Positions 13,587 to 59,217 of a DNA stretch of 59,217 nt are shown here, one piece after another. Numbering within the stretch: position 1 is the first letter of the stretch; the number at the start of each line of letters is the position of its first letter. Position numbers and translations under genes: made by a program. This DNA comes from Candidatus Falkowbacteria bacterium (lineage in GTDB: Bacteria; Patescibacteriota; Patescibacteriia; Patescibacteriales; UBA12075). Location of the stretch: assembly GCA_043801965.1 (NCBI GenBank), contig JAZDLN010000021.1, forward strand, positions 1 to 59,217, in the 5' to 3' direction. The notes beneath the pieces were generated by a model. That model was not told where the DNA came from and did no database searches. It saw only the letters and a program-made list of their open reading frames with translations.

Positions 13587-13639
13587 AATCTTTTTAAACT
13601 AAGTAAATTAGATTTTTAAAAAATATATAAAATTATCAA

Positions 13640-13884: not shown

Positions 13885-13896
13885 TAAAACAAAAAA

Positions 13897-14123: not shown

Positions 14124-15527
14124 TTATTCACCGCAAATACTATCCCGGCACTCGAGCGGCAGATAGCAATACGGATAATAACCGGCCTTTTCACAGCACG
14201 GACCGTTTTTAAAGCCGCAATCGGCGCGCTTGATAAAGACCTGGGTGGCGATAAAAAAATCGTTGACATAAGCCAGGCCGACGCCGGCCTCGTCGTAAGC
14301 GGCATTCATTATATTTGCCCGATGTCCCGGGCTCTCCATCCAGCCTTTCGTCATTTCGCTTACGATAATATCTTCCGCGCGCCAATTGACCTCGCTCGCC
14401 CTGATCGCTGTTTCCGATTCGAAGGCGGCGGCGCGACGAAGAAGCTCCGCCCGGACAATCGCCATTTTCTCTTCGTTATCCCGGCCCGCGTCTACCACGG
14501 ATTTAAAAGCGGCGTCCCAGTCCTCCCGCTTTTTCTGGCAGGCCGCTAATTTTGCTCCTACTGGATCGCCTTCCCAATAAACCACCTTATAGGTCGCGCC
14601 GGATAAAAGCGCTATATTCTCCGCCGTCTGGCTGAAATAATGCACGTCGCGGTTACTCAGGCGCTCGCTGTTATAGATCCCGAAATCAAGACCTTCGTGG
14701 TGGATCAGGGGAAAATCGCAGGCAACGCCAAAGGCCGTAAAAGTCTCGTTCTCCCGCGCGAGATTTAAACTATGCTCCCGGGCGACGGCCGCCAGTTCTT
14801 CGTTCCAGCGGAGAGCCGGCAAACCGCCACCGGTTCTCTCCCGGTTTACGGCTTCATGTATATCCCGCTCACCTATTGAAAGCAAAAAGCCTGGCGTACC
14901 GGCCAATATTTTATCCAGATCGCCATTGGTAATGCCCAACCCCAGAGAGCGCATGATCGCGAAGGCGTCCGCGGGCCGGCCCAGAAAATACCTCTTGCCG
15001 TCGGCCGGATTAACATACCAGGCTTCGCCGTTTCTTTCCACGGCTAAAAAGATCTTCCCTGGCTGGCGTCCGGTAAAATCAAGATTAACAGGCATCACTC
15101 CTGATCCGAGATAATTAAAACCATTCGCGAGTTCATGCTTATCGTCAAAGCCGTCACCGTCCGTATCGGCTCTAGTCTTATCCGTTCCAATGGCTGTTTC
15201 AAGATCGTCGGGGAGGCCGTCGCCGTCCGCGTCAGAAACTAAATTTCCCACAGGAAATTTAGTTTCTTCTATTAAACCCGCCGGTATCTTATCCAAGTCG
15301 GCATCAGTAATGCCGATCCCCTGTTCCCGCATCAGCGCGAAAGCATCCGCTGGCCGGCCTAAAAAATAGCGCATCTTGTCAAAGGGCGCGACATACCAGG
15401 CTTCGCCGTTCTCTTCGACCTGAAGTAAAATCCGGCCGGACAATTTATCGGCTAAGCCCGCCGCCGATAACGAACCAAAAGGCCAAACCAGTAAAAATAC
15501 ATTAATAAAGACAATAATTTTCTTCAT
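14124..15527 (-). CDS. Secreted CAP/SCP-domain protein with duplicated N-terminal module and TSP3-like Ca-binding repeats
   Basis: Signal peptide. Two copies of a module of about 54 aa (GEAWYV..RYFLGRPADAFA.MR..G.GIT..DLDKI.AG). DADGDGLPDD and DTDGDGFDD motifs. C-terminal GWMESPGHRANIMN typical of CAP/YkwD domains. Confidence 0.75.
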   Translation of the reverse strand: MKKIIVFINVFLLVWPFGSLSAAGLADKLSGRILLQVEENGEAWYVAPFDKMRYFLGRPADAFALMREQGIGITDADLDKIPAGLIEETKFPVGNLVSDADGDGLPDDLETAIGTDKTRADTDGDGFDDKHELANGFNYLGSGVMPVNLDFTGRQPGKIFLAVERNGEAWYVNPADGKRYFLGRPADAFAIMRSLGLGITNGDLDKILAGTPGFLLSIGERDIHEAVNRERTGGGLPALRWNEELAAVAREHSLNLARENETFTAFGVACDFPLIHHEGLDFGIYNSERLSNRDVHYFSQTAENIALLSGATYKVVYWEGDPVGAKLAACQKKREDWDAAFKSVVDAGRDNEEKMAIVRAELLRRAAAFESETAIRASEVNWRAEDIIVSEMTKGWMESPGHRANIMNAAYDEAGVGLAYVNDFFIATQVFIKRADCGFKNGPCCEKAGYYPYCYLPLECRDSICGE

Positions 15528-17370: not shown

Positions 17371-17488
17371 TATCTAAAGTTATGAATTTTTGACCTTTGA
17401 CAATAAACATAATTACACTAAAAGAAAGGCTAAATTTTTAATCGGCATTATGGCTAAATCGGCAGCTAAAACAAAAGGAGAAAAAAAC
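17341..17488 (+). repeat. Conserved promoter/5' leader, copy A (pairs with 20560-20708)
   Basis: By eye about nine in ten positions match copy B, including a 45/45 identical block at 17363-17407. Similarity stops abruptly at the ATG. Confidence 0.8.
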
Positions 17489-20589: not shown

Positions 20590-20708
20590 TATCTAAAGTT
20601 ATGAATTTTTGACCTTTGACAATAAATCAATTACAATAAAGAAAGGCTAAGTTTTTAATCGGTTTTATGGCTAAATCGGCAACCAAAACCAAGCGAGGAG
20701 AAAAAACA
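20560..20708 (+). repeat. Conserved promoter/5' leader, copy B
   Basis: See copy A. The identical 45-nt block is at 20582-20626. Confidence 0.8.
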
Positions 20709-23645
20709 ATGAAGGATAAAAACAATTCGGAGCTTAGAGAGGGCGCGGAATTATTCGGCTACCGGGTAAAACGCGCCGCCGCCCTGCCCGATATCGCTTC
20801 CGTATTTTACGAACTAGAGCACGTGGCCACGGGCGCGCAACATATCCACATAAGCAACCAGGATAAAGAAAACGCTTTCAGCGTCCTATTTAAAACCGTG
20901 CCCGGCGACTCTACCGGCGTGGCGCATATCCTTGAACACACCGCTCTTTGCGGTTCGGAATCATATCCGGTCCGCGACCCGTTTTTTTCGATGATGAAGC
21001 GCAGTTTAAGCACTTTCATGAATGCCTTTACCGCTTCCGATTGGACGAGCTATCCCTTTGCCACTCAAAACACGAAAGACTTTTATAATCTCCTCGGCGT
21101 TTATCTTGACGCGGCTTTCTTCCCCCGTCTGGAAGAATTGAACTTCCGGCAGGAGGGCTGGCGCTACGAAATCGAGAAAAATCCGGACACCGGCGCTGAA
21201 GAGCTTGTTTACAAAGGCATAGTCTATAACGAAATGAAAGGCGCTATGTCGTCTCCCTTAAACGTTATGTACCGCTCACTGATGAATGCCCTTTATCCGG
21301 ATACGACCTACGGACACAATTCCGGCGGCGACCCCGAAGATATCCCGTCTTTGACGTATGAACAGTTTAAAGAATTCCACCGCCGCCATTACCACCCCTC
21401 GAACGCTTTCTTCTTTACTTACGGCAACCTGCCCTTGTCCAGCCACCTGAAGGTCATCAGCGAAAAGGTAATGGGCCGTTTCACGAAAATAGACACGCAT
21501 ACCGAAGTGCCTAACCAACCACGCTGGAACCAGCCGAAAAAAACGACTTACCGCTACCCCACGAACGAAAACCCGGAAAAAAAGAACCAGGCGTGCGTAG
21601 CCTGGCTGACGGCCGACATAAAGGACGTTTTTGAGGTTTTAACGCTCAAAGTCCTGGAGCAGATCCTCCTCGGCAATGACGCGGCCCCTCTGCGCCGCGC
21701 CCTGATCGAGTCGAATTTAGGCTCGACCCTGTCCGACGCTTCCGGCTATAACTGCGAAAACCGCGACACTATGTTCGCCGCCGGCCTGAAAGATGTTAAC
21801 GCGGCGACGGCGCCGGAAATCGAAAAATTAATCTTTTCAACATTGGAAAATCTGGCGACTAACGGCATCGACCCGGAACTGATTGAATCGGCGATCCACC
21901 AGATAGAATTCCAGGCCAAGGAGATAGTCAACGAACCCTATCCCTACGGTCTGAAATTATTCCTGGATTCGGCCGGATGTTGGATTCATGGCGGCGACCC
22001 GCTCCATGCCCTAAACGTAAAAACCGCTTTTGAACAATTGCGCGGCCTTATCGGTCGTGGCGCCTATCTGGAAAAGAAGATCAGGGAATACTTCGTGGAT
22101 AACCGCCATCGCGTGCTGTTTACGCTCAAAGCGGATACGGCCATGCAGGCCGAGTTAGAACAAAAAGAAAAAACACGCTTAGCCGCGATCAAGGCTGAGT
22201 TGGATTCCGCGGAAATAAAAAAAATCAAGGCTATCGCCGCGGCACTCGAAAAATTGCAGGAATCAAAAGAAAACCTGGACGTATTACCGACCCTGGAGCG
22301 AGCGGATATACCGCCGACCGTTATCAGCGTAAAAGCAGCCATCAAAAACGGGCGCATCAGCCTGTACAGACAACCCACCGCCGGCATTGAATATTTTACC
22401 GCTGCCGCGGGTCTAAGCGGGTTGCCGGAAAAGCTCCTGCCCTTGGTGCCGTTTTTCTGCTTCGCTTATCCTTTAATGGGGACAAAGCGGCGGGATTACG
22501 CGGCCTTGATGCGCGATATCGACCGTTATACCGGCGATATCAGCCTGAGTCCGCACGTCCATACTAAATACGGCGGCACCAGAACGACTCTGCCTTTTAT
22601 TTCTTTTTCCGGCAAATGTTTAAGCCGCAACAGAGAAAAAATGCTCGCCTTGATCGAAGAATTGACTCACGAAACGAGTTTTAACAACCTTAATCATCTG
22701 GCTAACACGCTTAACAGATTCAAAGCCTCAGAGGAGTCGCGGATCGTCCAAAACGGCCATCGCCTGGCAATGTCTTTAGCTTCCAGAAATTTTTCTAAAA
22801 CTAATTTCCTGAAAGAATCGTGGGACGGAATTCATCAGTTCGAATTCCTGAAGGGCTTGTCTCAGGACCTGAGCCATGAAAAGCTCCAAACCTTGGCCGG
22901 CGACCTGGAATTAATCAAAAATACCGTTTTAAAACCGGCTAGCCTGAAAATGGCTTTCGTGAGCGAAAACCCGGACAAACGGCTGCTTAGCTTCCTGATC
23001 GGCAAAGAAATGGACAAGGTCGATAATTTCCGGTCCCCCAAGATAACGTTAACCGATGAGGTTATCCGTGAAGGCTGGTCAACCGCCACCGCCGTATCGT
23101 TCGTGGCCCAAACCTTCAAGACCGTCAAATACGGCCACAAAGACGCTCCGGCGCTCGCGGTCATCGCCGAACTTATGCGCAACGAATATCTGCACCGGGA
23201 GCTCAGGGAAAAAGGCGGCGCTTACGGCGGATTTGCCAATTACAATCCCGAAAACGGGATATTCGCCTATGCTTCGTACCGGGATCCGCACATCATCAAC
23301 ACCCTTAATGTTTACGAGCAGGCGGATAAATATATCAGGTCCGGAAACTACACCGACGAAAACGTCAAAGAAGCGATCCTTATGGTCTGTGCCGAATTAG
23401 ATAAACCGGATCCTCCGGGACCGGCTTCGGAGCTCGCTTTTTACCGGGAACTTATCCAGGCTACCGACGATATGCGCCAGGCTTTCAAAGCCGGCCTGAT
23501 CCGGCTGCGGCGCGACGATATTATGAGAACGGCCAAAAAATATTTTAACGCACCCGACAAAACCACCGCCGTAATTTCGAACATAGACAAACTGAACGAA
23601 GCCAACAAAAGGCTAAAAAATCCGCTTACGCTCCATAAAATTTAA
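20709..23645 (+). CDS. M16C (PreP/insulinase-like) metallopeptidase paralog B, intact
   Basis: About 978 aa from ATG 20709, with GAGGAG upstream. HILEH zinc motif, conserved VRDPFFSMMKRSL..FMNAFT, and C-terminal REKGGAYGG. Confidence 0.85.
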   Translation: MKDKNNSELREGAELFGYRVKRAAALPDIASVFYELEHVATGAQHIHISNQDKENAFSVLFKTVPGDSTGVAHILEHTALCGSESYPVRDPFFSMMKRSLSTFMNAFTASDWTSYPFATQNTKDFYNLLGVYLDAAFFPRLEELNFRQEGWRYEIEKNPDTGAEELVYKGIVYNEMKGAMSSPLNVMYRSLMNALYPDTTYGHNSGGDPEDIPSLTYEQFKEFHRRHYHPSNAFFFTYGNLPLSSHLKVISEKVMGRFTKIDTHTEVPNQPRWNQPKKTTYRYPTNENPEKKNQACVAWLTADIKDVFEVLTLKVLEQILLGNDAAPLRRALIESNLGSTLSDASGYNCENRDTMFAAGLKDVNAATAPEIEKLIFSTLENLATNGIDPELIESAIHQIEFQAKEIVNEPYPYGLKLFLDSAGCWIHGGDPLHALNVKTAFEQLRGLIGRGAYLEKKIREYFVDNRHRVLFTLKADTAMQAELEQKEKTRLAAIKAELDSAEIKKIKAIAAALEKLQESKENLDVLPTLERADIPPTVISVKAAIKNGRISLYRQPTAGIEYFTAAAGLSGLPEKLLPLVPFFCFAYPLMGTKRRDYAALMRDIDRYTGDISLSPHVHTKYGGTRTTLPFISFSGKCLSRNREKMLALIEELTHETSFNNLNHLANTLNRFKASEESRIVQNGHRLAMSLASRNFSKTNFLKESWDGIHQFEFLKGLSQDLSHEKLQTLAGDLELIKNTVLKPASLKMAFVSENPDKRLLSFLIGKEMDKVDNFRSPKITLTDEVIREGWSTATAVSFVAQTFKTVKYGHKDAPALAVIAELMRNEYLHRELREKGGAYGGFANYNPENGIFAYASYRDPHIINTLNVYEQADKYIRSGNYTDENVKEAILMVCAELDKPDPPGPASELAFYRELIQATDDMRQAFKAGLIRLRRDDIMRTAKKYFNAPDKTTAVISNIDKLNEANKRLKNPLTLHKI

Positions 23646-47213: not shown

Positions 47214-48263
47214 CTATTCGATAATTTCGAGTGAATTCATCATCATGTCGAAAATACGGCCATAGTGGGAAGTGTTGTCCGCGCCGACATTATAATTCAA
47301 AGTAAAAATATTCTTCCCGTCAGCCGGAAGAAGATAGGTCGTAAGCCCATTTTCGCCCTTGATCCCCCGCCAGCCCTTCTTATATATCTTCTGGCTGCTC
47401 TTGACGCTTTCTACCTCGAATTGCTTCACGTACCAATCTTCGATCGTGGCATATCCGCTGTTAGGCTGGATGATCACCTGGAAAAACTGGCCGTTGTCAG
47501 CTTTTATCATGATCGAATCTTCGGCTCCGACCGAAATAAGCTCCCATGTTTCCGGATAAAACAGTTTATACTGGTATTTGCTGTTTATGTATCTTTCGAT
47601 GCTTGCGTTAATAACTAAGAGCCCGGTACTGGCTGGGTTATACAGGTTCAATAATTCTGGAAGATCGCCGTATCCGTCGCCATCGCTATCGCCGGAGTCC
47701 TTATTTGTCCCCAAAAGGACTTCTTCAATATCGGACAAACCGTCATAATCGCCGTCTGGAGCGGCCTTTATTTCTATTGCTACTGCCGGAACAGGCGTTT
47801 CGATTTCAGAGGAGGAGGTGGCGGTTTCCGGAGACGGGGTAGAGGGAGCGGCGGCGGTAGAAGAGGAAAAATCCTCTTTCGCTTCAATAAAGGAAGGCTC
47901 AGCCGCGACTGGCGGATTATAGTCTGTATTATTTTCGTTCCCGGCGTTATTCCCGCCGATCGTTTCCGCCGGCACATTGTTCGCGCCGATACTATCTGTG
48001 GCGTTGTTTAGAACGCCGGTATCCGCCGGATCGGGCGCGTTCCCGTTCTTGGGGGTCATCGAAAAATAAAAATAAGCGGCCGCGAATATAGCCAAAAGCA
48101 ATACCGCCCCTATCGATAATATCAGGATGCCGGTAAATTTACTTTTCTGCGCCGCCGGCTTTTCGAAAAAAAATCTTTCCGGCATGGTATGTATGGTCAC
48201 CTGACCTCCGGTCTGGCCGCCTAAGGGCTTAATCAGGTTATCCGGTTTTTTGTTCATATCCAT
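47214..48263 (-). CDS. Membrane-anchored extracytoplasmic protein with TSP3-like Ca-binding repeats
   Basis: 349 aa. TM anchor, low-complexity linker, DGDYDGLSDIEE and DSDGDGYGDLPE motifs, and a C-terminal globular domain. Its stop lies 1 nt from the ybeY start. Confidence 0.65.
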   Translation of the reverse strand: MDMNKKPDNLIKPLGGQTGGQVTIHTMPERFFFEKPAAQKSKFTGILILSIGAVLLLAIFAAAYFYFSMTPKNGNAPDPADTGVLNNATDSIGANNVPAETIGGNNAGNENNTDYNPPVAAEPSFIEAKEDFSSSTAAAPSTPSPETATSSSEIETPVPAVAIEIKAAPDGDYDGLSDIEEVLLGTNKDSGDSDGDGYGDLPELLNLYNPASTGLLVINASIERYINSKYQYKLFYPETWELISVGAEDSIMIKADNGQFFQVIIQPNSGYATIEDWYVKQFEVESVKSSQKIYKKGWRGIKGENGLTTYLLPADGKNIFTLNYNVGADNTSHYGRIFDMMMNSLEIIE

Positions 48264-48331: not shown

Positions 48332-49099
48332 CTAATTCATGTCGTACAATTTTCCCGCTCCCTTGGGATTAAAACCTTTATCTACCTCCCCGCCGTCAGT
48401 ATAACTGTCTCCATCGGTATCAGGATTTAAAGGGTCGGTCATGTAAACCCTAACCTCTTCGCGGTCAAAAAGTCCGTCGCTATCGCTGTCCGCGCTGGCC
48501 GTATCCGTGCCCAAGGCCTCTTCTTCCGCGTCAGTTAACCCGTCCTGGTCGGTATCAATATCCGGGTTATTTTCCGTGTCCCTGGCAGTGTCAGTAAACT
48601 GAGGAACTTCGCCCTCCGGCGCCGTATTATCCGGCACTGGAATCTCGTCGTTATTTACCGGGATCACGATATCATCCTCGGTTCCTGCCGGAAAAACATC
48701 ATTTTCGATGGGTTCGGCCGCTGGTAAGTTATCCGCCGTATCGAATAAAAGCCCGAAACTCAGATAACCGCCCCCGGCTATCGCGATAAAGGCGATGATC
48801 AGGGCCGACAAAAGCAAAAGCTTCTTTGGGGCGTGCTTATCGGCGGAATTGGCGTCGTCATGGCCGTAATTTTCAAGTAAGGCCGGACTTGTCCTGGGTT
48901 GGAAAATCGCCGGTTTGACCTTCGGAGCCAGCAAGGCCGCGCCGGCTTTATCCGTGTCAGCAAAAATATCCTCTACTGTCCGGCCGGGCATAAGCGGTTT
49001 TTTATCCTTATCGTTATTTTCCGCTTCTTTGCCGGCTGGCTGTTTTTGGGCAGCGGAAAGATTATTACTCTGATCACTCGAGGCGATATTATCGAACAT
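48332..49099 (-). CDS. Membrane-anchored protein with TSP3-like Ca-binding repeats
   Basis: 255 aa. Central TM helix and DTDQDGLTDAEE, DSDSDGLFDREE and DTDGDSYTDGGE motifs. Confidence 0.65.
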   Translation of the reverse strand: MFDNIASSDQSNNLSAAQKQPAGKEAENNDKDKKPLMPGRTVEDIFADTDKAGAALLAPKVKPAIFQPRTSPALLENYGHDDANSADKHAPKKLLLLSALIIAFIAIAGGGYLSFGLLFDTADNLPAAEPIENDVFPAGTEDDIVIPVNNDEIPVPDNTAPEGEVPQFTDTARDTENNPDIDTDQDGLTDAEEEALGTDTASADSDSDGLFDREEVRVYMTDPLNPDTDGDSYTDGGEVDKGFNPKGAGKLYDMN

Positions 49100-49256: not shown

Positions 49257-52200
49257 TTAATTGGGCATTACCATAACCTCATTCGAGTACCCGCTTTCGT
49301 TGCCGGCATCATCGCTCCCCGTTATCGCGAAATAATAATTAGTGCCGACCGTCAATCCGGATATTATAATTTCCTCGTCCAGCCCGATATCCTCCGCGTT
49401 GCCGTAGCAAGCCGGAGGAGTAGCTCCGGCGCAACCCGAACCGCTCCGGAAATAAACCGTATAATCAGTTACATTTCCCGTTGTATCGGGATTCCAGCTT
49501 AAACGGGCCTCCCCGCTACCGGCGGTACCGGTAAGTCCCGTGGGGGCTAGTGGCGCGGTCACGTCTCTCGGAATGACCGGTCCGAATTCGCCGTTCATCC
49601 CGCTTTCCGCTCCCGCGGCGTTATAGGACGTGATATTGAAATAATAAGGAATATCGTCAGTTAAACCGGTTATATTATAGCTTAAAATATTGCCGGCATC
49701 AACATTGCTGCCGTAAAAACCCGGAGACGTTCCCCAGTAAAGGCGGTAACCGCTGGCACCGGCTACCGGCGGATTCCAGGTCGCGGTTACGCTTCCGCCC
49801 GTGCCGCTATTGGTCACGTTAAGCGTGGTCGACGATACCGGCGCCGCTTCCCGGAAAAAATAATATTCCTTAAGGAGACCGGGGAGGTTTTCGCCGACAA
49901 TCACGCGATCATAGGTTATGGCGGGCAGATCGTCGAAAGTTCCGGCCTGACCCTGGTCACGGCAATAATATATCTCGTAATTATAACTATTGGCGCAGCC
50001 GCCCGCCGTCTGCGTGCAATTCCCGGCCGCGTCCTGCCAGGGCGCCCACAATCCCCCGATCACCGGAGGCCAGGGATTTTCGCAGACAAACACATAAACG
50101 TCAGCGCTGCCGGGATAAACAGTGCCAGCGGGAGAAGTCGGTATAACGCTCGAACCGATTATGGCCCGGGCGGAAAGAAGGGTGTAGCCATCGGTCGTTT
50201 GAGCGTCGGCTACTACCAATTTCTTGTCTTCTCCTCCAACCGGGAACGGACCCGGGGCCGCGATATCGGCTACCTGGGGCGCTCCTGATGTCCAGGTCCA
50301 GGTCCAGTCGTAAAGACCGGGTATTGCCCCCAAAACCTGGCCGTCGCGGCTTAGCGGATAAGCCGTAAAAACCTTATCGGCGTCCGTGATCTTATCGAAA
50401 GTCGGATCCGCCGGGTTCGTATCGTTTTCATTGTTAATATCGTTACGGGTGGTTTGAAAAAGATAAGATTCCGGCCTGACGTCAACCCGGTTAAGTTCGC
50501 AAACGCCGTTATTTGAGGACTGCTCGGTCAAAGTACGGAATGACCAAACGTGAGAATTGCTGTAAGTTATGCCGTTAAAGGTCAAAGCCAGGCCGCCGTT
50601 AAAGCCTACTCCCCAGGCGGAAAGGACGCCATGGTTCGAATCAAGATTCTCGTCTCCTTTCACGATCACGTAATAAAGCCTGTTCCCGTCTAAAAGCGAA
50701 GACGGCGTGAAGGTCAGGGTCGTTTGCCCGCTTAAAGTCGAACCGCCGGTACTTCCAGTAACGGCGCAATAATTACGGCTAGCGGCCGGAGGCGTATAGG
50801 CTTCCGCCAGGAAAGAAGGCAGGATCGTTTCCATCGTCCGATACAGGAGCCATCCCATCTTACTATAGATACGGGTCGCTAAACGGCTCCGGTCGTTTAC
50901 GTGGATATCGCTTGCCAGGTATTCCGTGCCGGCCGGACAATTAGCGTCCATATAATCCCCTACCACGATGACATTCCCGGAAAAACTCGCGACTGACATC
51001 GGCTGGTTGAAAGTCACGGAAAAAACCGCGTTGCGGCAGATGTTGACCGCGTCATCGGCCGGCATCTCCGAATTAGGCACGATGGTGGGCCGGGCCCGGC
51101 AGCAGGTATCGACCCCGCAACCGACGTTGACGGGAGGGATGCCCGTCAAAGAACAATCAAGATCGGTCTCGCAGCCGCAGCAAAGTCCCCGGCTCCCGCC
51201 GGTACAAGGCGATTTATCGGCCTGGCAATCAAGACCAAGGGGATCGCAATCCGCGCTGCCCGGATCGCAGCAGCAGACACCGCAGGTATCGGGATTTCCC
51301 GATACGTTAAAGGGCGTCGGCGCGGAACCGTCTTCGTTTATGCAGCCGAAAGGCGCCGGACAAACGGCAGTATCGCAGGTGTTCGTGGCCACCTGATAAG
51401 CGCAGCTTAAACCCAGTCCATTAGCCGGATTATTCATCAAACAGCCGGCGACACAGCTCACTTCATCACGGTAATCGCCGTCAATAACCGCGTTAGCCGC
51501 GCCGGTATTACAGGTATCGTTATTGGGTACCGGCAAGCAATTCCAGTAAGGACAGGAACCGCCCAGGATCGTTCCGTCGCCGCCGCGGCATATATCGATA
51601 TTATCCTTTTCGTCAAAACAGCAGCTGCCCACGCCGATATTAAGGCAATCGGCCGCGCCCGCTAAACCGGTGCAGTCCCGGCAAACTCCGTCAGGGTAGC
51701 CAGGATCGGCCGTATCGCAGAACTTTCCGCTCGTGCCGGTGCAGTTGCAGGCGTCATTGTGTTCCGCCTGGGTCGTGCCCGCCAAAGCGCAGCCGGAACA
51801 TTCCCCGAAGCTGCCGCCCGAACCGCAGCTGCCGGTGCATTCGAGGGGCACGCAGCAATCACGGGCGTCCTGGCCTATTTCACAACAGCATTCGCAGGCA
51901 GGCGTAGAGGTCAGTTCGCACCGGTTAGCCGCGCAGGCGGCGCCGGGAGGGCAGATATCCGCCGCTATGGCGCATGCCCCCTCGTCAGCGGGAGCCGCTA
52001 AATCGTCAAGGCATTCAAAGCCGTTCGCGCAGGCCAAGCAAGGTAAATTCGGATTCACGCAAACATTACCCGGCGGGATCTTGATCCACCCCGGAGTTGA
52101 AGTCGGACAGCTTAAGTTGGTTCGCAAATGCCAGCTGGCGGCGCCGCTATAATCGGCGCAATAGGATTGCGCGGGATTATTCAGGATATCGTAAAAAACC

Positions 52201-54731
52201 GGCGACAGGTCGCAATTCGATCCGTTGACGCACCGGTCGATGACACTATTATAAGAACAGGCTCCGCCGGCACAAGCCGGGGAAACGCTTGAGCAGCTCG
52301 AATCGCACGTTCCTACGATTTCCGTCGCGCCGCCGGGATCGGTCGAACACTGGCCGGGAGAATTCGGACAGAACCTCGAATTTAGGCACTGGTCCATGCT
52401 GTAACCGGAACATGACTCTAAAGCGGCCGCCGTCTGGCAAGTGCAGTGGGTCGGACTCGACGGATCGTTATCGCAATACAAGCCGATCTGACAAGGACCG
52501 TAGATCGGATTGCAGCCGGGGGTTGAAAGCGCGTCCACGTAGCAGGGATCTCCTAATCCTCCGGGAATCGTGCTCGTGCCCGTTTCGCTCGTGAAATCCC
52601 ATTCGTAAACAGAACTGGTTATCCGATTATAGCAATCTTCGATAGTGACAAAGCCGTCGCCGTTTCCGCCCATAGCCGCCGCGTCCGCGGCGCAGCGCCC
52701 CGCCCGAAAAGTGCCTGAGGGGCAACAAACTCCGCCGCAAGCGGCGTCGGGATCCGGCGCGTTCGTGCATAGTCCGACCGTAAAGTCAATGCTGTTTCCG
52801 ATACTTCCGCTCTGTTCGACCGATACGGGACCGGTCACGGCCAGCTGATGAACCGTCGTCACTATGGCGTCAGCGTTCGGATCCGGATTATCCTGCCAGG
52901 AAGCATGGACAGTCTGGCCGTGGTTCAGGTGGAACCAGACGGTATCGTCCGCCGCGCCGAAATATTCGCCGTATAAGGAGACCGGGCTGTTATTGGGGCC
53001 CATGATCGGCGTGATCCGGCAAATACTCGGTGCCGGAGCGCCGGCGGTAACACTGAATTGGGCGGGATTTAAGGTTCCGGTGTCGATCTGCGGCCAGGAA
53101 CCGATATCCATGAATATGGTATGATTGCCGCTTATCCCGTCCGGAACCTTGACTATCACCCGGTGATCGGTCCAGACGCCGTCCGCGCAATCGTCGGGAA
53201 AATCATAATCGGCTTCCGTGGCGCCGAAAGAAACGCTTGATCCGCCGCGCGCCGAGCCGAAACCGCCGCCATAGATCGTTACGTATTGTCCCGGCGGGCC
53301 GGAGGCAGGCTCGAAACCCGTTATATACGGACCGGTTACGGTCAGCGTTGAAACCCGGAAATTAAGATAATTGCTCGGATGGGTCGAAGAGGCGAAAGTT
53401 GTCGTATTGCCGGCGCGCATATCCGGCACTCCGGCGGTGCCGAATCTGCCCTGCGGATCGGTAAATAAAGGATTTAAAGCCGTTATATTAGTCGTATAAT
53501 TCCCGAAATAAGTCCGGGTGCCGTTAGGCAGGTTTATGCCCTGATAAGTGATGATATCCTGATAATAGCCGGTGGTGGTTGAGAGCTGGCACAAACCCGG
53601 CCGGACCGTATTATTGACGGTAAAGCCGGGGTCAATAACCGGCCCGCGGGCATTATCCGTCGTGTCTTCTTCCGTATCAGACGATCTTACGAGCCGGATG
53701 ACGTTCGCTCCCATAGGCGCTCCGGCCGGAACGACCACGATCACCTGGTTGTCGGACCAGAAAGCGGTACAGCTGGGATTGACCGTGTTTGGGAAAGGCG
53801 CCAGGACGCCGTTAAAATAAACCTCGCCGGGGGCCGCGCCGAAAAACCGGCCGCCGATCGTCACGAGATTGCCGCGCGCTCCGTCCGGCGGGCTTACCCA
53901 ATCGATCACCGGCGCGCCGATGCAGGTGCATTCCGTCGGCGAACCGACGGTATCGTCGCATCTTAAACCGCTTACGCACATCGAATCCGTGGCGTCGCAA
54001 ACGGCGGTCGCGCTGTCGCCGTCGCAGGGATCGCCGAATCCGCCCAAGGGCGAACAGGTGCAGGCGGTCGGATCGCAAAAATAAGTTCCCGGAGTAAAAA
54101 AAGTATCGCAAATCGAATCACTCGGGCTCGAGCAGGTCGGACCGGGCGTAGAATCGCAATCAACCGTGCCGCCGGGATTGCAGGGCGGGGCCTGGCAGCC
54201 GGTTATAGGACAGCAAACGTCGCCGCCGCCGCAAACGCCAGAGCAAGGCCCCCAGGTATTATCGGCCTGGCAGACCTGCGTACCGTAGCAACCGCAGCTC
54301 CGGGGCGGATCTCCCGGATTGCAGGCGTTCCCGCCGGTAGCGGAAAGAAGGCTATTTAAGACGAAACTGGCTATCGCGAAGGACATGAGTATAATAATAA
54401 GGCCGATCACGGCCGCTACCAGGGTCTTTTTCGCCTTTTCCAGCTGGGCGGCGTTGCCGTTAGAGGTCATCCAAAGCCAGCCGCCGTACATTATGAGAAC
54501 TACCGCGATAACGCCTAAAAAGCCCAGGGCGATCCTGATCACATTGGCGACTATGACGCGCGGGTCGGTATTCCCGAGGCCGGTAGCCGTCTGGACATTC
54601 CCTTCGGTTCCGCCCCAGAGCATATTATCCGCGGCGGACTGGGCAAGAGCGGAATTAGCGATAGCAAAAAAACCAACGAAAGCGAAAATCGCCAAACAAC
54701 ACAAAATAAATTTTCTATATTTTTTTACCAT
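49257..54731 (-). CDS. Giant (1824 aa) Cys-rich surface protein: VirB2/TrbC-like pilin membrane module + IPT/TIG + SbsA-type Ig-like + 2x FN3
   Basis: The N-terminal ~135 aa (54327-54731) is a long leader, then NMLWGGTEGNVQ..TDPR, and two hydrophobic helices flanking GWLWMTSNG..KAKKTL. IPT-like repeats follow (VSPPDGARGNLVTIGGRFFG, FEPASGPPGQYVTIYGGGFG). There are very Cys-dense stretches. Two FN3 domains sit at the C-terminus (YRLYWGTSPG..YYFNITSYNAAG and YTVYF..YYFAITGSDDAGNES). Confidence 0.8.
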   Translation of the reverse strand: MVKKYRKFILCCLAIFAFVGFFAIANSALAQSAADNMLWGGTEGNVQTATGLGNTDPRVIVANVIRIALGFLGVIAVVLIMYGGWLWMTSNGNAAQLEKAKKTLVAAVIGLIIILMSFAIASFVLNSLLSATGGNACNPGDPPRSCGCYGTQVCQADNTWGPCSGVCGGGDVCCPITGCQAPPCNPGGTVDCDSTPGPTCSSPSDSICDTFFTPGTYFCDPTACTCSPLGGFGDPCDGDSATAVCDATDSMCVSGLRCDDTVGSPTECTCIGAPVIDWVSPPDGARGNLVTIGGRFFGAAPGEVYFNGVLAPFPNTVNPSCTAFWSDNQVIVVVPAGAPMGANVIRLVRSSDTEEDTTDNARGPVIDPGFTVNNTVRPGLCQLSTTTGYYQDIITYQGINLPNGTRTYFGNYTTNITALNPLFTDPQGRFGTAGVPDMRAGNTTTFASSTHPSNYLNFRVSTLTVTGPYITGFEPASGPPGQYVTIYGGGFGSARGGSSVSFGATEADYDFPDDCADGVWTDHRVIVKVPDGISGNHTIFMDIGSWPQIDTGTLNPAQFSVTAGAPAPSICRITPIMGPNNSPVSLYGEYFGAADDTVWFHLNHGQTVHASWQDNPDPNADAIVTTVHQLAVTGPVSVEQSGSIGNSIDFTVGLCTNAPDPDAACGGVCCPSGTFRAGRCAADAAAMGGNGDGFVTIEDCYNRITSSVYEWDFTSETGTSTIPGGLGDPCYVDALSTPGCNPIYGPCQIGLYCDNDPSSPTHCTCQTAAALESCSGYSMDQCLNSRFCPNSPGQCSTDPGGATEIVGTCDSSCSSVSPACAGGACSYNSVIDRCVNGSNCDLSPVFYDILNNPAQSYCADYSGAASWHLRTNLSCPTSTPGWIKIPPGNVCVNPNLPCLACANGFECLDDLAAPADEGACAIAADICPPGAACAANRCELTSTPACECCCEIGQDARDCCVPLECTGSCGSGGSFGECSGCALAGTTQAEHNDACNCTGTSGKFCDTADPGYPDGVCRDCTGLAGAADCLNIGVGSCCFDEKDNIDICRGGDGTILGGSCPYWNCLPVPNNDTCNTGAANAVIDGDYRDEVSCVAGCLMNNPANGLGLSCAYQVATNTCDTAVCPAPFGCINEDGSAPTPFNVSGNPDTCGVCCCDPGSADCDPLGLDCQADKSPCTGGSRGLCCGCETDLDCSLTGIPPVNVGCGVDTCCRARPTIVPNSEMPADDAVNICRNAVFSVTFNQPMSVASFSGNVIVVGDYMDANCPAGTEYLASDIHVNDRSRLATRIYSKMGWLLYRTMETILPSFLAEAYTPPAASRNYCAVTGSTGGSTLSGQTTLTFTPSSLLDGNRLYYVIVKGDENLDSNHGVLSAWGVGFNGGLALTFNGITYSNSHVWSFRTLTEQSSNNGVCELNRVDVRPESYLFQTTRNDINNENDTNPADPTFDKITDADKVFTAYPLSRDGQVLGAIPGLYDWTWTWTSGAPQVADIAAPGPFPVGGEDKKLVVADAQTTDGYTLLSARAIIGSSVIPTSPAGTVYPGSADVYVFVCENPWPPVIGGLWAPWQDAAGNCTQTAGGCANSYNYEIYYCRDQGQAGTFDDLPAITYDRVIVGENLPGLLKEYYFFREAAPVSSTTLNVTNSGTGGSVTATWNPPVAGASGYRLYWGTSPGFYGSNVDAGNILSYNITGLTDDIPYYFNITSYNAAGAESGMNGEFGPVIPRDVTAPLAPTGLTGTAGSGEARLSWNPDTTGNVTDYTVYFRSGSGCAGATPPACYGNAEDIGLDEEIIISGLTVGTNYYFAITGSDDAGNESGYSNEVMVMPN

Positions 54732-54857
54732 CTTAAAAATTGCGCTTTATCCTGAAGAATTTTTAATTTATAAATTTTTAATTTTATAAATAATTTTAAA
54801 ACAGTGAAATCCTTAAAAATTTAAATTTATTTAAAAATTCAAAAATTAAAAATTATT

Positions 54858-57371
54858 TTAGGGACAAACACTCCCCGCCGTCGGCACTTCAGAACAGCAG
54901 GAAGGCGTGCCCGCACAGGTATTGGAAACGCTCGGATTAAAGCAATTCTGGTAAATATCCTTGATGCCTGATCCCGCCTGACTGCGATAGCGCAGGAACT
55001 CCCCTAAAGGCGCGTGCCGTATTTCCGCCTGCGTCCGGTCCGGAATACCGTCGTTGTTGTCATCCAGATCGTTCTTGACCACCCAGTAGCCGACGGGACG
55101 GTTGGCCAGGCTCCAGAGATTTATCGCCCGATGGATCACCGTCTCATTGCCGTTTACCACGCTGACGCTGCCGGTTTTAAGGCTTGATGACATCATTAAC
55201 TTGCTGCACGTTATCACGACCGGATCGGCCAGGGACACGTTAGCCGTATTATTGGTCGGCGCAAGAGCGTCGATTTCCGGCGGAGTCAGATCGAGAATAT
55301 CGCTAACGTAGAATGACCATTGGAAATTATCGCCGGTCCCGGCCGCCGGCGCATTCTCGTTATAGGAATTCACCGGACCGACCGCTTCCGAATCGCGATT
55401 GCCGTCCAGAGAGTTGGCGCAAGCATCGGCGATACCGGAGAGCGGCATAAGGGAAGACGGATAATTTATACCCGCCGCGTCTTCGCAGTGGCCGCCCGCG
55501 CAGTTATCGTAAGGGCTTTTGCTGGCGCAATTATCCGCGCCGCAACCCGTTAAAGAGGCCGCCGTCAATTCCACCCTTAAATTACTTAAGGCCGGAAGGC
55601 AGTAAATCCTCTCACCGCAAGCGTTAACTCCGCAGAGGTCGTCGCTTACGAACTCGACCGTCCGGTAACCGTTGGAAATAAGAAAACGGCCGGTCAGGGT
55701 GACTCCCGTGCCGATATTGACTATTCTTATATAAGGCGCCACGTCAGCCGCGTCCCCGGAAAGGGTGATCGGATTCATGGCCTCGTTGAAGTTAACCTGG
55801 ATCACGATATTCCGCGGCACGTCCCGCGCTCCTCCCTGGATCGTAACCGTATCGTTATCGTCTTGCCCTCCGGACATAGGGGTAACGGATAAGGCAATGG
55901 GGTTATTGGTGGATAAAAGTATATTATTGCCTCCTTGGCCGGCAATAACGGCCGTAATCGTAACAACCGGACCGGCGGCGGAAGCGGTAACGCTCGGATG
56001 ACCCGCTAAGGCGGCGGCTATATTGGCGGCCACGGTATTTAAATTAGGGCTCGTCGCGATATCGACGCCGAAAGAATAAGTTCGGTTATCAACCCTTAAA
56101 ATATCCGCGTTAACGCGGGCGGTCACGCCCGTAATCGTCCAAAAATTTCCGGCGCTCACGGGTCCGGGCGCGGTTAAGGAAAGAACTCCGGGAAAAGCCA
56201 CGGTATTCCCCGCGAAATTCGCGGCGCCCAAAGGCGTGGCGCCGTTAGTAAGCTGGGCGGTAACGCCGTCCGTCATTACGGTTACGGTCAGGTTGCCGCT
56301 TGCCTGATTATTAGGATCGATCGTGACCGTGGCGCCGGGAGGATTGACGGCCGCGTAGGACGGAGCCGCGGCCGCGCGCGGCTGGCCCGTTACCGTAACG
56401 GCGCCCGCCGCCCGGACAGCCGGAACGGTCGATATCGCGTCTTGGGCGTTATCCGGCGGAGGGATTATCCCGCCGTCAACCACTTGGGGCGGTGTAAGAT
56501 CAAGCCTGTTGCTTACCTGAAAACCCCACAGGGCGTAATCATTCGCGCAATTTCGGAATACCGGCGTACCGTTAGCCAATTCGATGTCATTCGAAAGGTA
56601 AACGCCATAGTTAATATATTCGCTCGGCGAACCCAGATAATTTACCGGATCAAGGAAGAAGGTGGCATTATCGTTAGTGCTGACAATAACTTCATCAACC
56701 AGACTCGGGCAGGCTCCCCCCGAAAGGCAGGCCGCCTGGTCGGATTGGTGGAATATCATTACCCGGTCGGTAAGTATATTATTGCTTCCGTCCATGATCG
56801 TGGCCGGATCGATCGGTTCCCGAAAGGTAATGATAATGCCGACATTGCGCGGAACTTCAGCCTGGCCGGGTTCGGGGTAAACGCTTAAAAGCGAACAGTT
56901 GCCCAAAGCCACCAAGCCGATGCCCGCCCCCGGTCCGCCGCCTGAGCCTGGATTATACGTGGTGGCGCCCAATAAACGGCTTAAAATAAAACTCACGATC
57001 GCGAAGGACATGAGTATGATTATTAGACCGACAATAGCCGCCGTCAGGGTTTGCTTGGCCTTGTTTATTTTCGACTCGTCGCCGGCACTCGTGGTCCAAA
57101 GCCAGCCGGCATACATTATAAGCAATACGGCGATTATCCCTAAAAATCCCAGAAGAACCCTGATTATATTAGCTATAATAATCCGCGGATCAGTGCTGCC
57201 TAAACCGGTAGCCGCCTGGACATTCCCTTCTGTTCCGCCCCAAAGCATGTTATTAGCGGCGGATTGGGCCGATACCGGAGCAGAAACGAAAAAACCGGCG
57301 GTCATTGCCATAATAGCGGCCGTTAAAGCGAATAGTATGAATTTTTTATATTTTTTCGGTCTTGGGATCAT
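54858..57371 (-). CDS. Large (837 aa) surface protein: same pilin-like membrane module + SbsA-type Ig-like repeats, Cys-rich C-terminus
   Basis: The N-terminal ~140 aa is colinear with the 1824-aa neighbour (AQSAANNMLWGGTEGNVQAATGLGSTDPRIIIANIIR...GWLWTTSAGDESKINKAKQTL...). Repeats follow with LDLTPPQV / LDLTPPEI and the PRN..I.V.F.E.M pattern. Confidence 0.8.
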   Translation of the reverse strand: MIPRPKKYKKFILFALTAAIMAMTAGFFVSAPVSAQSAANNMLWGGTEGNVQAATGLGSTDPRIIIANIIRVLLGFLGIIAVLLIMYAGWLWTTSAGDESKINKAKQTLTAAIVGLIIILMSFAIVSFILSRLLGATTYNPGSGGGPGAGIGLVALGNCSLLSVYPEPGQAEVPRNVGIIITFREPIDPATIMDGSNNILTDRVMIFHQSDQAACLSGGACPSLVDEVIVSTNDNATFFLDPVNYLGSPSEYINYGVYLSNDIELANGTPVFRNCANDYALWGFQVSNRLDLTPPQVVDGGIIPPPDNAQDAISTVPAVRAAGAVTVTGQPRAAAAPSYAAVNPPGATVTIDPNNQASGNLTVTVMTDGVTAQLTNGATPLGAANFAGNTVAFPGVLSLTAPGPVSAGNFWTITGVTARVNADILRVDNRTYSFGVDIATSPNLNTVAANIAAALAGHPSVTASAAGPVVTITAVIAGQGGNNILLSTNNPIALSVTPMSGGQDDNDTVTIQGGARDVPRNIVIQVNFNEAMNPITLSGDAADVAPYIRIVNIGTGVTLTGRFLISNGYRTVEFVSDDLCGVNACGERIYCLPALSNLRVELTAASLTGCGADNCASKSPYDNCAGGHCEDAAGINYPSSLMPLSGIADACANSLDGNRDSEAVGPVNSYNENAPAAGTGDNFQWSFYVSDILDLTPPEIDALAPTNNTANVSLADPVVITCSKLMMSSSLKTGSVSVVNGNETVIHRAINLWSLANRPVGYWVVKNDLDDNNDGIPDRTQAEIRHAPLGEFLRYRSQAGSGIKDIYQNCFNPSVSNTCAGTPSCCSEVPTAGSVCP

Positions 57372-57544
57372 AATAGAGCCGGGTTATGAATGGTTTTTCG
57401 CTGTCCGTAATATCTTGCCATTTAGGCAGTCTTTAAAAATTGATTATTAATACAAAATATTTTACAGTCTCTTTTCCGAATATTTTTTCTACGTGCTTTT
57501 CGAATACGCGTAATAATACCGCGCGCTTTGCCGGTTATCTCTCT

Positions 57545-58165
57545 TTATTTCATTTCATACACCTTCTTCTCGCCGTCCGGCATGGTGTACGAGAGCGTAT
57601 CGCCAGATAGCGAGGGCGGACCAAAACTCCAAATCGGGTCAGCGGCGGTTTCGTCTATCTTTATTTTCTCTTTAGTAAACAGGTTATAGATATACAAAAT
57701 CGAAATTTTCCCATCTGCCCCGGCCTCTTCCCTGACCTGGTCGTCCAGTTGTTCAACACCGGTCCAGACCGCGGACGGAACATAAGGCATCCAGCCGGTT
57801 TCGAGGTCGGGCTCGAACCCCCCCATGGCTCCCGGAGGGGCTTCAAAAAAATTCCAACTCCAGTCGGTCGTGTCGATTCTCAGATAGCCCATGGTATCAG
57901 CGGCTGCGTAAATATCCGACCAGAAATAGCGATCGTTATCTTTCCAGTCCCACATCCCGAAACTGCCCAAGGGTCCGTCATTACCGTAATGCTTTTGAGA
58001 TATTTCCGGCATCTTTAAAACAAATGCGTCTTCGATGGTATCGAGAGATTTTATGACGAGGGAATAGTCGGGGTCGTATAATGCGCCTTTTTCCAATACA
58101 ACATATTTTTCGTTTTGAGAGACGCGAAAATCAGGCAAGTAGTGCGAAATATAATTTTTTTTCAT
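57545..58165 (-). CDS. Hypothetical protein
   Basis: 206 aa, no TM helix and no family recognised. AT-richer block. Confidence 0.55.
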   Translation of the reverse strand: MKKNYISHYLPDFRVSQNEKYVVLEKGALYDPDYSLVIKSLDTIEDAFVLKMPEISQKHYGNDGPLGSFGMWDWKDNDRYFWSDIYAAADTMGYLRIDTTDWSWNFFEAPPGAMGGFEPDLETGWMPYVPSAVWTGVEQLDDQVREEAGADGKISILYIYNLFTKEKIKIDETAADPIWSFGPPSLSGDTLSYTMPDGEKKVYEMK

Positions 58166-58179
58166 CTCTGAAACTGTGA

Positions 58180-58662
58180 CTATTTTTTTTTGTGACCGTT
58201 ATAATCGCTTTTATATAATTCGCTCTTATAACCATCCACTTTATTGGCGCTTATTGAATCATAATTAAATAATCTAACATAATATATGCCACACTTGTGT
58301 AATTCTATTGGTCTATAGTTCGTTCTCACGTCATTAACGACTATTACTCTTTCTATTTTGGTATTGTTATCTTTTATGCTAATATTAATATTCCCGTTTT
58401 TTATTCCTGTTTTTTCAATCGTATATTCCGCCGTTTCATCATCTCCTAAACATCTCCACTCCGTCGTAGTAGCTTCCTGCTCTACCGTATTATCTTCCGA
58501 CGGCGCCGCGACATTCCCGGAATTGACCGGTTGCCCCGTATAAGTCACTGTGTGCTTATCCGCTTTAAAAAACAACATCCAAACGAACAACGACGCGAAC
58601 ACAAGTACTGCGACCAAAGCGGCTGTTACTACAAAAATATCTTCTTTTTTCATCTTATTCAT
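58180..58662 (-). CDS. Hypothetical membrane-anchored protein
   Basis: ATG at 58662 (MNKMKKED..) is preferred over the GTG at 58674. One TM helix, then an extracytoplasmic domain. Confidence 0.55.
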   Translation of the reverse strand: MNKMKKEDIFVVTAALVAVLVFASLFVWMLFFKADKHTVTYTGQPVNSGNVAAPSEDNTVEQEATTTEWRCLGDDETAEYTIEKTGIKNGNINISIKDNNTKIERVIVVNDVRTNYRPIELHKCGIYYVRLFNYDSISANKVDGYKSELYKSDYNGHKKK

Positions 58663-58834
58663 ACTCGAATTCACCCCGATTAGTGTTTAACTTGATTACC
58701 GTCATACCGTCTTCGGTCTCTTCGATCCCTTCATTCGTATTCCAGTCATACCCCCAAATCCTGGTCTGGTCATTGTTCTTATTGTAGAGTGCCTCCAGGA
58801 TAAAATTCTGGCGGCTCGTTACGGTCTGCGACAA
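58655..58834 (-). CDS. Possible small ORF (59 aa from TTG; open frame extends about 75 codons)
   Basis: The frame is stop-free from about 58885 to TAA at 58655-58657, and the stop overlaps the next gene's ATG region. There is no ATG and the start is uncertain. Confidence 0.25.
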   Translation of the reverse strand: MSQTVTSRQNFILEALYNKNNDQTRIWGYDWNTNEGIEETEDGMTVIKLNTNRGEFEYE

Positions 58835-58953
58835 TATTCTCTGGTTTTTGTTCCAGAGATAGATTACCGATGCCTGCGTGTTAATCTCTTCGTTTTTTAT
58901 TTTTTCTACAATATGCTACAATATAATTATAACTCAATTTTAAATTTCTATCC

Positions 58954-59217
58954 ATGAACAACGACAAAAATATCGCCATCAATCAAAATCATATTCCCTG
59001 GTACTTCGGCCGAAAATTCTGGGGGATACTGACGGCCCTGCCGTTTTTATTAAGCTTCCTGTTTTATTGGCACAATACCTATGATCCATTCTGGGAAAAA
59101 TTAAATAATTATTTTTCATATCTTGCCAGTGGCTTTTATTCAATATTAGATAGTCTCTTAGGCTCAATATACAAAAACGGAATTATTAAGTGGAATATTA
59201 TATTATATTATATTATA
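58954..59217 (+). CDS. Partial hypothetical membrane protein (runs off window end)
   Basis: ATG at 58954 followed by 88 stop-free codons to the window edge, with hydrophobic segments (WGILTALPFLLSFLFYW). It is more coding-like than the antisense 62-aa ORF listed at 58979-59167. Confidence 0.45.
   Translation, partial: MNNDKNIAINQNHIPWYFGRKFWGILTALPFLLSFLFYWHNTYDPFWEKLNNYFSYLASGFYSILDSLLGSIYKNGIIKWNIILYYII

Follow-up and report, generated by a model that had tools for sequence, protein, structure and literature searches.

Pilins related to VirB2 are already known from the Patescibacteria. Free-standing members have been surveyed (Wang et al. 2023, PMC10633639; Quinonero-Coronel et al. 2025, PMC12102498), and the pilins, their arrays, and their essentiality in S. 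epibionticum have been published (PMC10633639, PMC12102498, PMC12857230), the last of these for pilins of the T4SS (type IV secretion system) cluster in the one species tested (PMC10633639). Of 3,035 Patescibacteria assemblies, 2,417 (80%) carry VirB4 (PMC12102498, PMC10633639). The latest survey states that "No adhesins, such as PrgB, were detected" (PMC12102498). Here, we describe two tandem genes, A and B, on a 59,217-nucleotide contig of Candidatus Falkowbacteria bacterium (GenBank assembly GCA_043801965.1, contig JAZDLN010000021.1; the whole stretch is hereafter called the window), each of which opens with a pilin module of this family and continues into a large ectodomain. In A and B, a known pilin family (Pfam PF18895) takes on a new architecture; they do not constitute a categorically new system. 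Free Patescibacteria pilins share this module, which runs from the signal peptide through the second transmembrane helix (TM2), and stop at about 100-140 amino acids (aa), whereas A (1824 aa) and B (837 aa) go on for a further 1,690 and 700 aa, respectively. Free pilins also occur in variable arrays, often near virB4, whereas the A-B pair is fixed at two genes and sits in a housekeeping operon. We propose, at a probability of about 0.5, that A and B, as a conserved pair, are modular pilins whose biogenesis or assembly is that of the free pilins and which display adhesin-like ectodomains.

The papers cited above (PMC10633639, PMC12102498, PMC12857230) make no mention of pilins fused to large ectodomains, and in the searchable literature, including work on S-layer or giant surface proteins of Patescibacteria, we found no description of such fusions, of modular VirB2 pilins, or of this family; to that extent, the anchoring principle that an earlier note made from the sequence alone had called uncharacterised is indeed so. 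Under the published hidden Markov model criteria, the tandem A-B pair would probably be counted as a two-gene pilin array.

Modular type IV pilins, such as PilB and PilC of Streptococcus sanguinis, carry vWA or lectin modules on a pilin moiety. They share with A and B the concept of a minor pilin that displays an adhesin on a filament, and the likeness is one of analogy only: they form an unrelated superfamily with a class III signal peptide and a prepilin peptidase, whereas A and B have a signal-peptidase-I-type leader followed by a VirB2-type hairpin. The T4SS adhesins VirB5 (pilus tip, diderms) and PrgB (Gram-positive conjugation) resemble A and B in proposed adhesive role. PrgB is LPXTG wall-anchored and VirB5 is small and alpha-helical; neither showed a sequence or fold relationship to A or B. 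We know of no C-terminal giant passenger on this pilin superfamily.

The two genes and their N-terminal parts are as follows.

49257..54731, minus strand: gene A, predicted modular VirB2-type pilin of 1824 aa with a giant ectodomain; mature form 185.9 kDa, isoelectric point (pI) 4.1
54642..54731, minus strand: putative signal peptide of A (aa 1-30), ALA↓Q site (arrow, cleavage), from hydropathy, charge, and alignment with free pilins
54336..54641, minus strand: mature pilin module of A (aa 31-132), PF18895 at 20.5 bits when A is scanned whole; the module profile matches at E 7.7e-52
54858..57371, minus strand: gene B, predicted modular VirB2-type pilin of 837 aa with an ectodomain of Big_5 (SbsA-type Ig-like) domains; mature form 82.8 kDa, pI 4.4
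57267..57371, minus strand: putative signal peptide of B (aa 1-35), with a basic n-region, a hydrophobic core, and a VSA↓Q signal-peptidase-I-type site; helix at residues 7-29 in the model
56958..57266, minus strand: mature pilin module of B (aa 36-138), comprising exposed N-segment, first transmembrane helix (TM1), basic loop, and TM2; PF18895 at 28.5 bits when scanned alone

Coordinates, strand, and lengths of both open reading frames (ORFs) agree with the earlier note, which had also described a colinear N-terminal module of about 135 aa. The two N-termini are indeed colinear, with 88 of 135 residues identical (65%, E 2e-50), and the motif NMLWGGTEGNVQxATGLGxTDPR occurs in A and in B. The "megadalton-scale" size given in that note, by contrast, does not survive the masses listed above. 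Outside the module, A and B are unrelated, and the 27% identity of their ectodomains is alignment noise. The hydrophobic segments of each protein number exactly three, the signal peptide, TM1, and TM2, and all lie within the first ~138 aa. The module makes up the N-terminal 8% of A and 16% of B. Both cleavage sites are putative and were read by eye; that of B aligns with the AxA↓Q site of free pilins.

A search with the module only returned 94 proteins, nearly all of them free-standing Patescibacteria proteins of 100-140 aa that carry PF18895 and are ~50% identical to it, and several bear the name "pilin" in their sources. With free-standing Patescibacteria pilins of 120-140 aa, the alignment runs end to end, from leader to the end of the second helix, at ~50% identity, which bears out the likeness to short Patescibacteria pilins that the earlier note had drawn; the free pilins terminate at the point from which A and B run on into their ectodomains. 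Scanned by itself, the B module clears the PF18895 (T4SS_pilin) gathering cut-off of 26.6 bits, B scanned at full length reaches 24.0 bits, and orthologues of A carry precomputed PF18895 hits. All 39 aligned modules and free pilins match PF18895, and 15 of the 39 also match PF04956 TrbC/VirB2 (best 3.6e-07). An invariant motif is common to module and free pilins, DPR...LGFLG.IAV...G..WMT..G...AKK...IGL.IIL, and the A family likewise shows no variation at the motif positions that are fixed in free pilins.

Relationship to canonical conjugative pilins is more remote. A and B themselves have no PF04956 match at E<=1 in the Pfam scan, and the NCBIfam VirB2 model PRK13857 matches them at E 0.025 and 14.6 bits (cut-off 103). 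Alignment of the module profile to four plasmid VirB2/TrbC proteins with hhalign gave 87.8% probability (E 3.3e-06), with the DP motif, first helix, W-M, loop, and second helix in register. In a profile search of Protein Data Bank (PDB) sequences, VirB2 chains were second and third of three weak matches, again in register, at E values of 0.65 and 4 that are not significant alone and give way to the hhalign result. Agrobacterium VirB2 (PDB 8cue, 8exh), TrbC, and the F-pilin TraA (PF04956) share with A and B the long leader, two hydrophobic helices, and basic loop; A and B are distant from them, have a loop eight residues longer, occur in a monoderm organism, and lack adjacent VirB genes. A small pilin-like family borne on integrative and conjugative elements of Mycoplasma (NF045849; Mbov_0395/MMCAP2_0565) also matches the hairpin weakly (25.9 and 29.2 bits, cut-off 40, profile positions 12-78/80), and its members are unlike A and B in being small proteins.

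The predicted fold is consistent with these alignments. Given the 39-sequence alignment, AlphaFold models a helical hairpin with a predicted local distance difference test score (pLDDT) above 90 (helices H62-94 and H99-138 in B). The interhelix loop is short and basic, with a net charge of +2 in A and +1 in B, and the exposed segment of 28 residues between leader and first long helix (the N-segment) is net negative. Thus hydropathy, charge, and model all bear out the long leader, paired hydrophobic helices, and short basic loop described for both proteins. A Foldseek search of the module model against the PDB gave no match at E<=1e-3, many unrelated helical proteins resembling a two-helix hairpin; the sole pilus match was the A. 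pernix conjugation pilus 8dfu (rank 45, E 6.3). Features of type IV pilins are absent, as the leader ends in AxA↓Q, two helices follow, and neither Pfam nor NCBIfam returned a type IV pilin family. On sequence grounds, the module belongs to the VirB2-like pilin family of Patescibacteria, with canonical conjugative pilins as its distant homologues; homology to TrbC/VirB2 stops short of family-level membership. The pilin reading of the module stands on its end-to-end alignment with free pilins, on the B module passing the PF18895 cut-off, and on the in-register hhalign result.

Full-length homologues of A number at least 224, with lengths of 1,500-2,800 aa and the same make-up of PF18895, TIG, Big_5, and fn3. 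Their sources name them only as "hypothetical", "IPT/TIG", "Ig-like", or "fibronectin type III domain-containing", and none of the close homologues is an established S-layer protein. The full-length B family comprises 651 representative clusters at E<=1e-30, most best matches being 830-1,000 aa, and complete A/B pairs were found in 64 species-representative genomes. Metagenome assemblies can hold errors, and this prior is the only reason to suspect that a small pilin gene was joined to a downstream surface-protein gene by gene calling or assembly. We give that explanation virtually no weight: the ORFs are uninterrupted in the window, and the architecture is conserved in at least 224 independently sourced proteins as well as in the 64 pairs, which rules the explanation out.

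The boundary between module and ectodomain allows another reading, in which the module is a vehicle for export, the ectodomain is cut off in the Gly-rich linker after TM2 and freed or attached to the wall, and an ordinary pilin is left behind. Free pilins end exactly at the ectodomain start, where a conserved ...ATG(G) gives way to a Gly/Pro/Asn-rich linker, and in conservation the modules are on a par with free pilins. Neither a protease site nor a sorting signal (e.g., LPXTG) was seen in A or B, however, and the conserved operon block encodes no dedicated protease; release is pure inference, and we consider it quite improbable.

The main alternative is that the hairpin was co-opted as a plain membrane anchor, with A and B staying in the membrane without contact to a T4SS and forming, together with their operon partners, a constitutive S-layer- or glycocalyx-like layer, a spacer, or general adhesins. 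We regard this as possible, although we lean against it. If the module were a mere anchor, the A and B copies should have diverged independently since their ancient duplication; instead, they co-vary. Among the 64 genomes, A and B modules of the same genome are 65% identical, compared with 51% for orthologues between genomes and 50% for cross-type pairs, and in 63 of 64 a genome's own A-B pair is more alike than the orthologue mean. The exposed N-segment shows the effect most strongly: it is 57% identical within and 35% identical between genomes (ratio 1.57, against 1.19-1.24 for TM1, loop, and TM2) and is the most variable part of the module between genomes. A and B modules co-evolve within each genome.

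The closest relative offers a comparison with free pilins. Its locus L005 (GCA_001778165.1, contig MFGG01000008.1, positions 9509-13813) encodes nine tandem free PF18895 pilins of 128-141 aa, and the 10 kb on either side hold no VirB4. Mutual identity among copies 1-4 is 73-90%, and these copies share the N-segment of A, while copies 5-9 are only 27-48% identical to any other. In this lineage, the A module is 59-62% identical to free pilins 1-4 overall; its 28-aa N-segment reaches 82-93%, whereas the hairpin reaches only 47-50%. When ranked against 128 modules, free pilins 1-4 place the A module of their own lineage first. Between the N-segments of A and free pilins 1-4, 11-16 of the 23-26 identical residues use different codons; because about half of the identical residues differ in codon, the match is kept by purifying selection on the protein rather than by recent gene conversion. 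A plain anchor gives no account of why an exposed segment irrelevant to anchoring should co-vary most and match free pilins under purifying selection, and it leaves the invariance of the full pilin motif set unexplained. A search with the L004 module returned no free pilin from the 911-kb contig of that locus.

Passengers on pilins of this family are not confined to A and B. Other Patescibacteria pilins carry a passenger at the N-terminal end (P0069, P0085, P0086, P0090), which fits both termini of the hairpin lying on the same side. A second kind of modular pilin holds a Cys-containing passenger of ~100-150 aa between signal peptide and hairpin (L092; also P0069, P0085, and P0086). At L092 (Logan SRR22388326, 7067-12308), the pilin with the N-terminal passenger heads an array directly upstream of genes for PrgI/VirB3-like, TraC-like, and VirB4-type ATPase proteins; passenger-carrying pilins of this family, thus, do occur inside T4SS loci. 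The PrgI-like protein of L092 is itself fused to a CarboxypepD_reg Ig-like domain.

The ectodomains divide into the following regions.

53922..54326, minus strand: Cys-rich region 1 of A (aa 136-270), 22 Cys; the same continuation is found in truncated homologues P0002, P0011, and P0033
52782..53921, minus strand: IPT/TIG region of A (aa 271-650), two Pfam TIG stretches (best 468-560), TIG start motif at aa 274 and 468
51090..52781, minus strand: Cys-rich region 2 of A (aa 651-1214), 74 Cys, 64 of them conserved at >=90%; invariant CCC at aa 948-950 and 1153-1155
49842..51089, minus strand: Big_5 and a conserved predicted beta-sandwich region of A without a Pfam family (aa 1215-1630), pLDDT ~80-90
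49260..49841, minus strand: C-terminal tandem fn3 of A (aa 1631-1824), two Pfam fn3 matches; model and Foldseek matches to tandem fn3/Ig arrays
54861..56957, minus strand: ectodomain of B (aa 139-837), with a Gly-rich linker, at least three Big_5 Ig-like domains, and a short Cys-containing C-terminal tail

Pfam identifies TIG (E 1.6e-12, two stretches), Big_5 (8e-07, one stretch), and C-terminal fn3 (2.4e-13, two stretches) in A, and Big_5 (2.6e-11, three stretches) in B, where LDLTPP occurs at aa 290 and 693. The earlier note's IPT/TIG, SbsA-type Ig-like (LDLTPP), and paired C-terminal FN3 domains are accordingly all present; its long Cys-rich stretches apply to A and not to B. A has 112 Cys (6.1%), rising to 12.9% in aa 641-1215, where Cys is the commonest residue, whereas B has 18 Cys (2.2%), one CC, and no CxC. 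Of the 110 Cys in the A ectodomain, 69 are invariant and 18 more are conserved at >=90% (87 in all) among 27 homologues that are 39-50% identical to A, and the count is even in every ectodomain region (22, 4, 74, and 10). Judging from this pattern, the Cys residues form a conserved structural scaffold and not low complexity, and they are most simply taken to be disulfide-bonded.

A model of aa 625-1824 of A has a mean pLDDT of 68, with 70-90 in folded parts; Cys-rich region 2 is partly modelled as a beta-rich fold (pLDDT 70-85 for ~aa 805-1025), and the region at aa 1215-1630 bears the signatures ...CxNPWP... and NYxxYYCRD. Foldseek matched this model only to tandem Ig/fn3 ectodomains of adhesion molecules, with no enzyme fold. 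By domain make-up, A and B fit the general class of Ig/fn3-type surface adhesins, with binding as a predicted property, and the topology of the module would place the ectodomain outside the cell. In locus L007 (15513-16220), the C-terminal fn3 part of A is a separate ORF of 235 aa that has a hydrophobic N-terminus of its own and is 34% identical to the C-terminal end of the L003 A protein; it is either a natural split or a frameshift. G+C content is 0.58 across gene A (50001-54000), compared with ~0.43-0.52 elsewhere in the window, which probably reflects a composition rich in Gly, Ala, Pro, and Cys and not foreign origin, given the conserved synteny.

Several of these traits are shared with surface layers and speak for the plain anchor. 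Big_5 is the Ig-like domain of the S-layer protein SbsA, and the ectodomains are very acidic (pI 4.1-4.4 for the mature proteins) and come with Ca-binding partners. A and B resemble SbsA-type layers and two-protein layers of anchor plus canopy, such as archaeal SlaA/SlaB, in Big_5, in being large, acidic, secreted proteins, in their tandem pairing of a larger and a smaller protein, and in a possible Ca dependence. The S-layer or envelope proteins of Patescibacteria are, moreover, still unidentified (PMC5220378). Unlike S-layer proteins, A and B have no SLH, CWB2, or other known S-layer anchoring domain (Pfam) and no C-terminal anchor; both instead have a pilin-type anchor of their own.

The earlier note had pointed to two same-strand membrane proteins with thrombospondin type 3 (TSP3) repeats following A; the first is recognized by Pfam and the second through a repeat shared with TSP3 proteins of relatives.

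48332..49099, minus strand: single-pass membrane protein of 255 aa, TSP3_bac at 9.9e-09 (Ca-binding type); conserved operon member with orthologues in relatives
47214..48263, minus strand: single-pass membrane protein of 349 aa, TSP3-like Asp-rich repeat and C-terminal globular domain; last conserved operon member

The 349-aa protein has orthologues in L003, L004, L006, and L007 (E 1e-28 to 1e-36). It has no Pfam match beyond a weak PsbP-like one (E 0.033), and its repeat was found by BLAST to be common to the TSP3 proteins of relatives. We examined 84 loci. The TSP3 family occurs in 70 of them, with two paralogous single-pass members each, orthologous to the 255-aa and 349-aa genes. Of the 73 loci with B, 70 have the B-type gene as the immediate upstream neighbor of the A-type gene. 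The module opens both proteins in every case, and no further module-bearing ORF was found within 10 kb. Upstream of the block are RelA/SpoT, HisRS, and signal peptidase I. Downstream, two synteny variants are distinguished: YbeY-DAGK-FtsA-FtsZ closes the block in 41 loci, the window among them, and in 34 loci, A is followed by an extra secreted protein of ~1,070 aa and a protein of ~105 aa, and the block ends in ClpP-SecDF. B followed by A and the two TSP3 membrane proteins is a core chromosomal operon, and its conservation across Patescibacteria strengthens the view of a dedicated cell-surface apparatus. The A family was found in at least 232 GTDB species genomes, a count from a pattern-limited scan of one genome per species with the CxNPWP and NYxxYYCRD signatures as patterns.

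The extra secreted protein of the second variant (~1,020-1,190 aa; L003 15776-18991, L004 15860-18970, L006 13413-16466, and L007 16276-19854) belongs to no Pfam family, apart from a weak VWA match in L007, and shows no similarity to A or B; its ~105-aa partner is a membrane protein. Both are absent from the lineage of the window. Many genomes with this Patescibacteria-specific operon (loci L010, L011, L014, L019, and ~30 others) are titled "uncultured Gammaproteobacteria bacterium", which looks like a placeholder or a wrong label on bulk-submitted metagenome-assembled genomes. As candidate orthologues of B and A in S. epibionticum, we considered SEML1_0890/0891 (fn3, VCBS; essential envelope) and rejected them, as they are 195 and 565 aa long and lack a pilin module; the annotation tables of the S. 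epibionticum paper list no large gene with PF18895 plus TIG/Big_5.

The window itself has the gene content of an ordinary chromosome (FtsZ, FtsA, YbeY, ComEC, NrdD/NrdR, a release factor, many peptidases, and MetK). No ORF in it besides A and B carries a pilin module, and a search for VirB4, VirB6, coupling-protein, or other T4SS genes across its 59 kb found none, as the earlier note had stated for the first three. A promoter and terminator scan of 46-59 kb gave terminator-like sites at no more than shuffle expectation, none of them convincing between genes. Window DNA is 90-92% identical to Candidatus Falkowbacteria RIFOXYB2_FULL_47_14 and RIFOXYA2_FULL_47_19 (Patescibacteria, Parcubacteria group). 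This similarity stops exactly at the start codon of B: in 57372-59217, two minus-strand ORFs without a family match (57545-58165 and 58180-58674; 206 and 164 aa) replace RelA/SpoT, which lies upstream of B in 69 of the 84 loci. The change may be a local rearrangement, an insertion, or a contig join.

For a plain anchor, this core-genome context beside cell-division and Sec genes, never beside T4SS genes, is a favorable point, as are the single copy of A and B and their near-universal pairing. On the other hand, the TSP3 proteins of the same operon make do with an ordinary single signal-anchor.

If A and B are instead working pilins, they would be exported by Sec and cleaved by signal peptidase I at AxA↓Q. 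The hairpin would lie in the membrane as that of VirB2 does, its two ends outside and its loop cytoplasmic, and this topology would show the ectodomain on the cell surface. The module, as a functional pilin unit, could then enter the pool of free pilins or a VirB2-like polymer of the Patescibacteria T4SS. A and B would be rare minor subunits, at the tip, at the base, or sparsely placed, that confer an adhesive function for contact with a host or surface, and the Ca-binding TSP3 proteins would be Ca-dependent accessory partners in the envelope. A role of A and B in host contact is hypothetical.

Several observations weigh against this proposal. No VirB4/VirB6/VirD4-type gene lies within 10 kb of the operon in any of the 84 loci; the large Walker-A ORFs in the flanks are Der, AtpA, a helicase, and one type-IV-pilus PilB, and the neighbors of the operon are housekeeping genes (RelA/SpoT, HisRS, signal peptidase I, YbeY, and FtsA/FtsZ or ClpP/SecDF). 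Any T4SS of this genome is hypothetical, and S. epibionticum has an essential T4SS but no obvious orthologue of A or B. The match to a lineage's own free pilins is clear in one lineage only: at L043, the own A module ranks eighth of 128 (59% versus a best of 61%), a similarity at the level of the clade only, and a free pilin on the L013 contig is unlike its own A or B. Gene conversion that homogenizes the tandem 5' ends could explain part of the A-B co-variation without functional need. Finally, a passenger of 175 kDa per subunit cannot be packed on a filament of ~9 nm, so that incorporation would be sparse or terminal at most.

There is a bolder version of the proposal, by analogy with VirB5. 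A and B would be the adhesin or tip complex so far missing from the T4SS appendage of Patescibacteria, with modules that nucleate or cap a short VirB2-like tube of free pilins and giant ectodomains that form a "barb" at its end for host recognition. Electron cryotomography of the patescibacterium M. amalyticus shows a lance ~9 nm in width and 70 nm in length whose tip bears a barb density, and an equally wide conduit that leads into the host; the composition of both is unknown (PMC11880426). The lance with its barb is a lead for this version, and nothing yet links it to the operon. We consider a tip complex unlikely; if it were true, the lineage-specific exposed N-segment common to fused and free pilins would serve as the interface between subunits, and the operon would encode a core device of the radiation for contact with hosts.

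A large part of bacterial diversity belongs to the Patescibacteria, and cultivated representatives live attached to host cells. For their contact with hosts, A and B offer a concrete, phylum-wide candidate: two conserved surface proteins that are themselves pilins by homology, with modules that co-evolve and, in this lineage, match the free pilins. If the modules co-assemble with free pilins, A and B would be the first VirB2-type modular pilins known to us and would give a hold on the appendage, which could then be labelled, pulled down, or blocked. Otherwise, the PF18895 hairpin can act as a membrane anchor, which would caution against reading every PF18895 match as a pilus subunit. Either way, the operon, seen here in a tiny groundwater bacterium, may be how host-dependent bacteria mount adhesins on a pilus or on the membrane. 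Likewise, a scaffold of 110 Cys, 87 of them conserved, is unusual in an extracellular protein of an anaerobe and raises the question of how its disulfides or metal sites form.

Elsewhere in the window, an M16/PreP-type peptidase is apparently split between an ORF of 845 aa (17390-19927, plus strand) and one of 152 aa (19960-20418, plus strand) that holds the PreP C-terminal domain. The split gene adjoins an intact paralogue of 992 aa (20667-23645, plus strand) and may represent a frameshift, a pseudogene, or a sequencing error. A SAM-I riboswitch (13894-14000, minus strand; 52.6 bits) precedes the gene for S-adenosylmethionine synthetase (MetK; 12537-13586, minus strand). Finally, a weak TSP3 repeat accompanies a CAP (cysteine-rich secretory protein) domain in a protein of 467 aa (14124-15527, minus strand), another secreted protein of TSP3 type in this genome.

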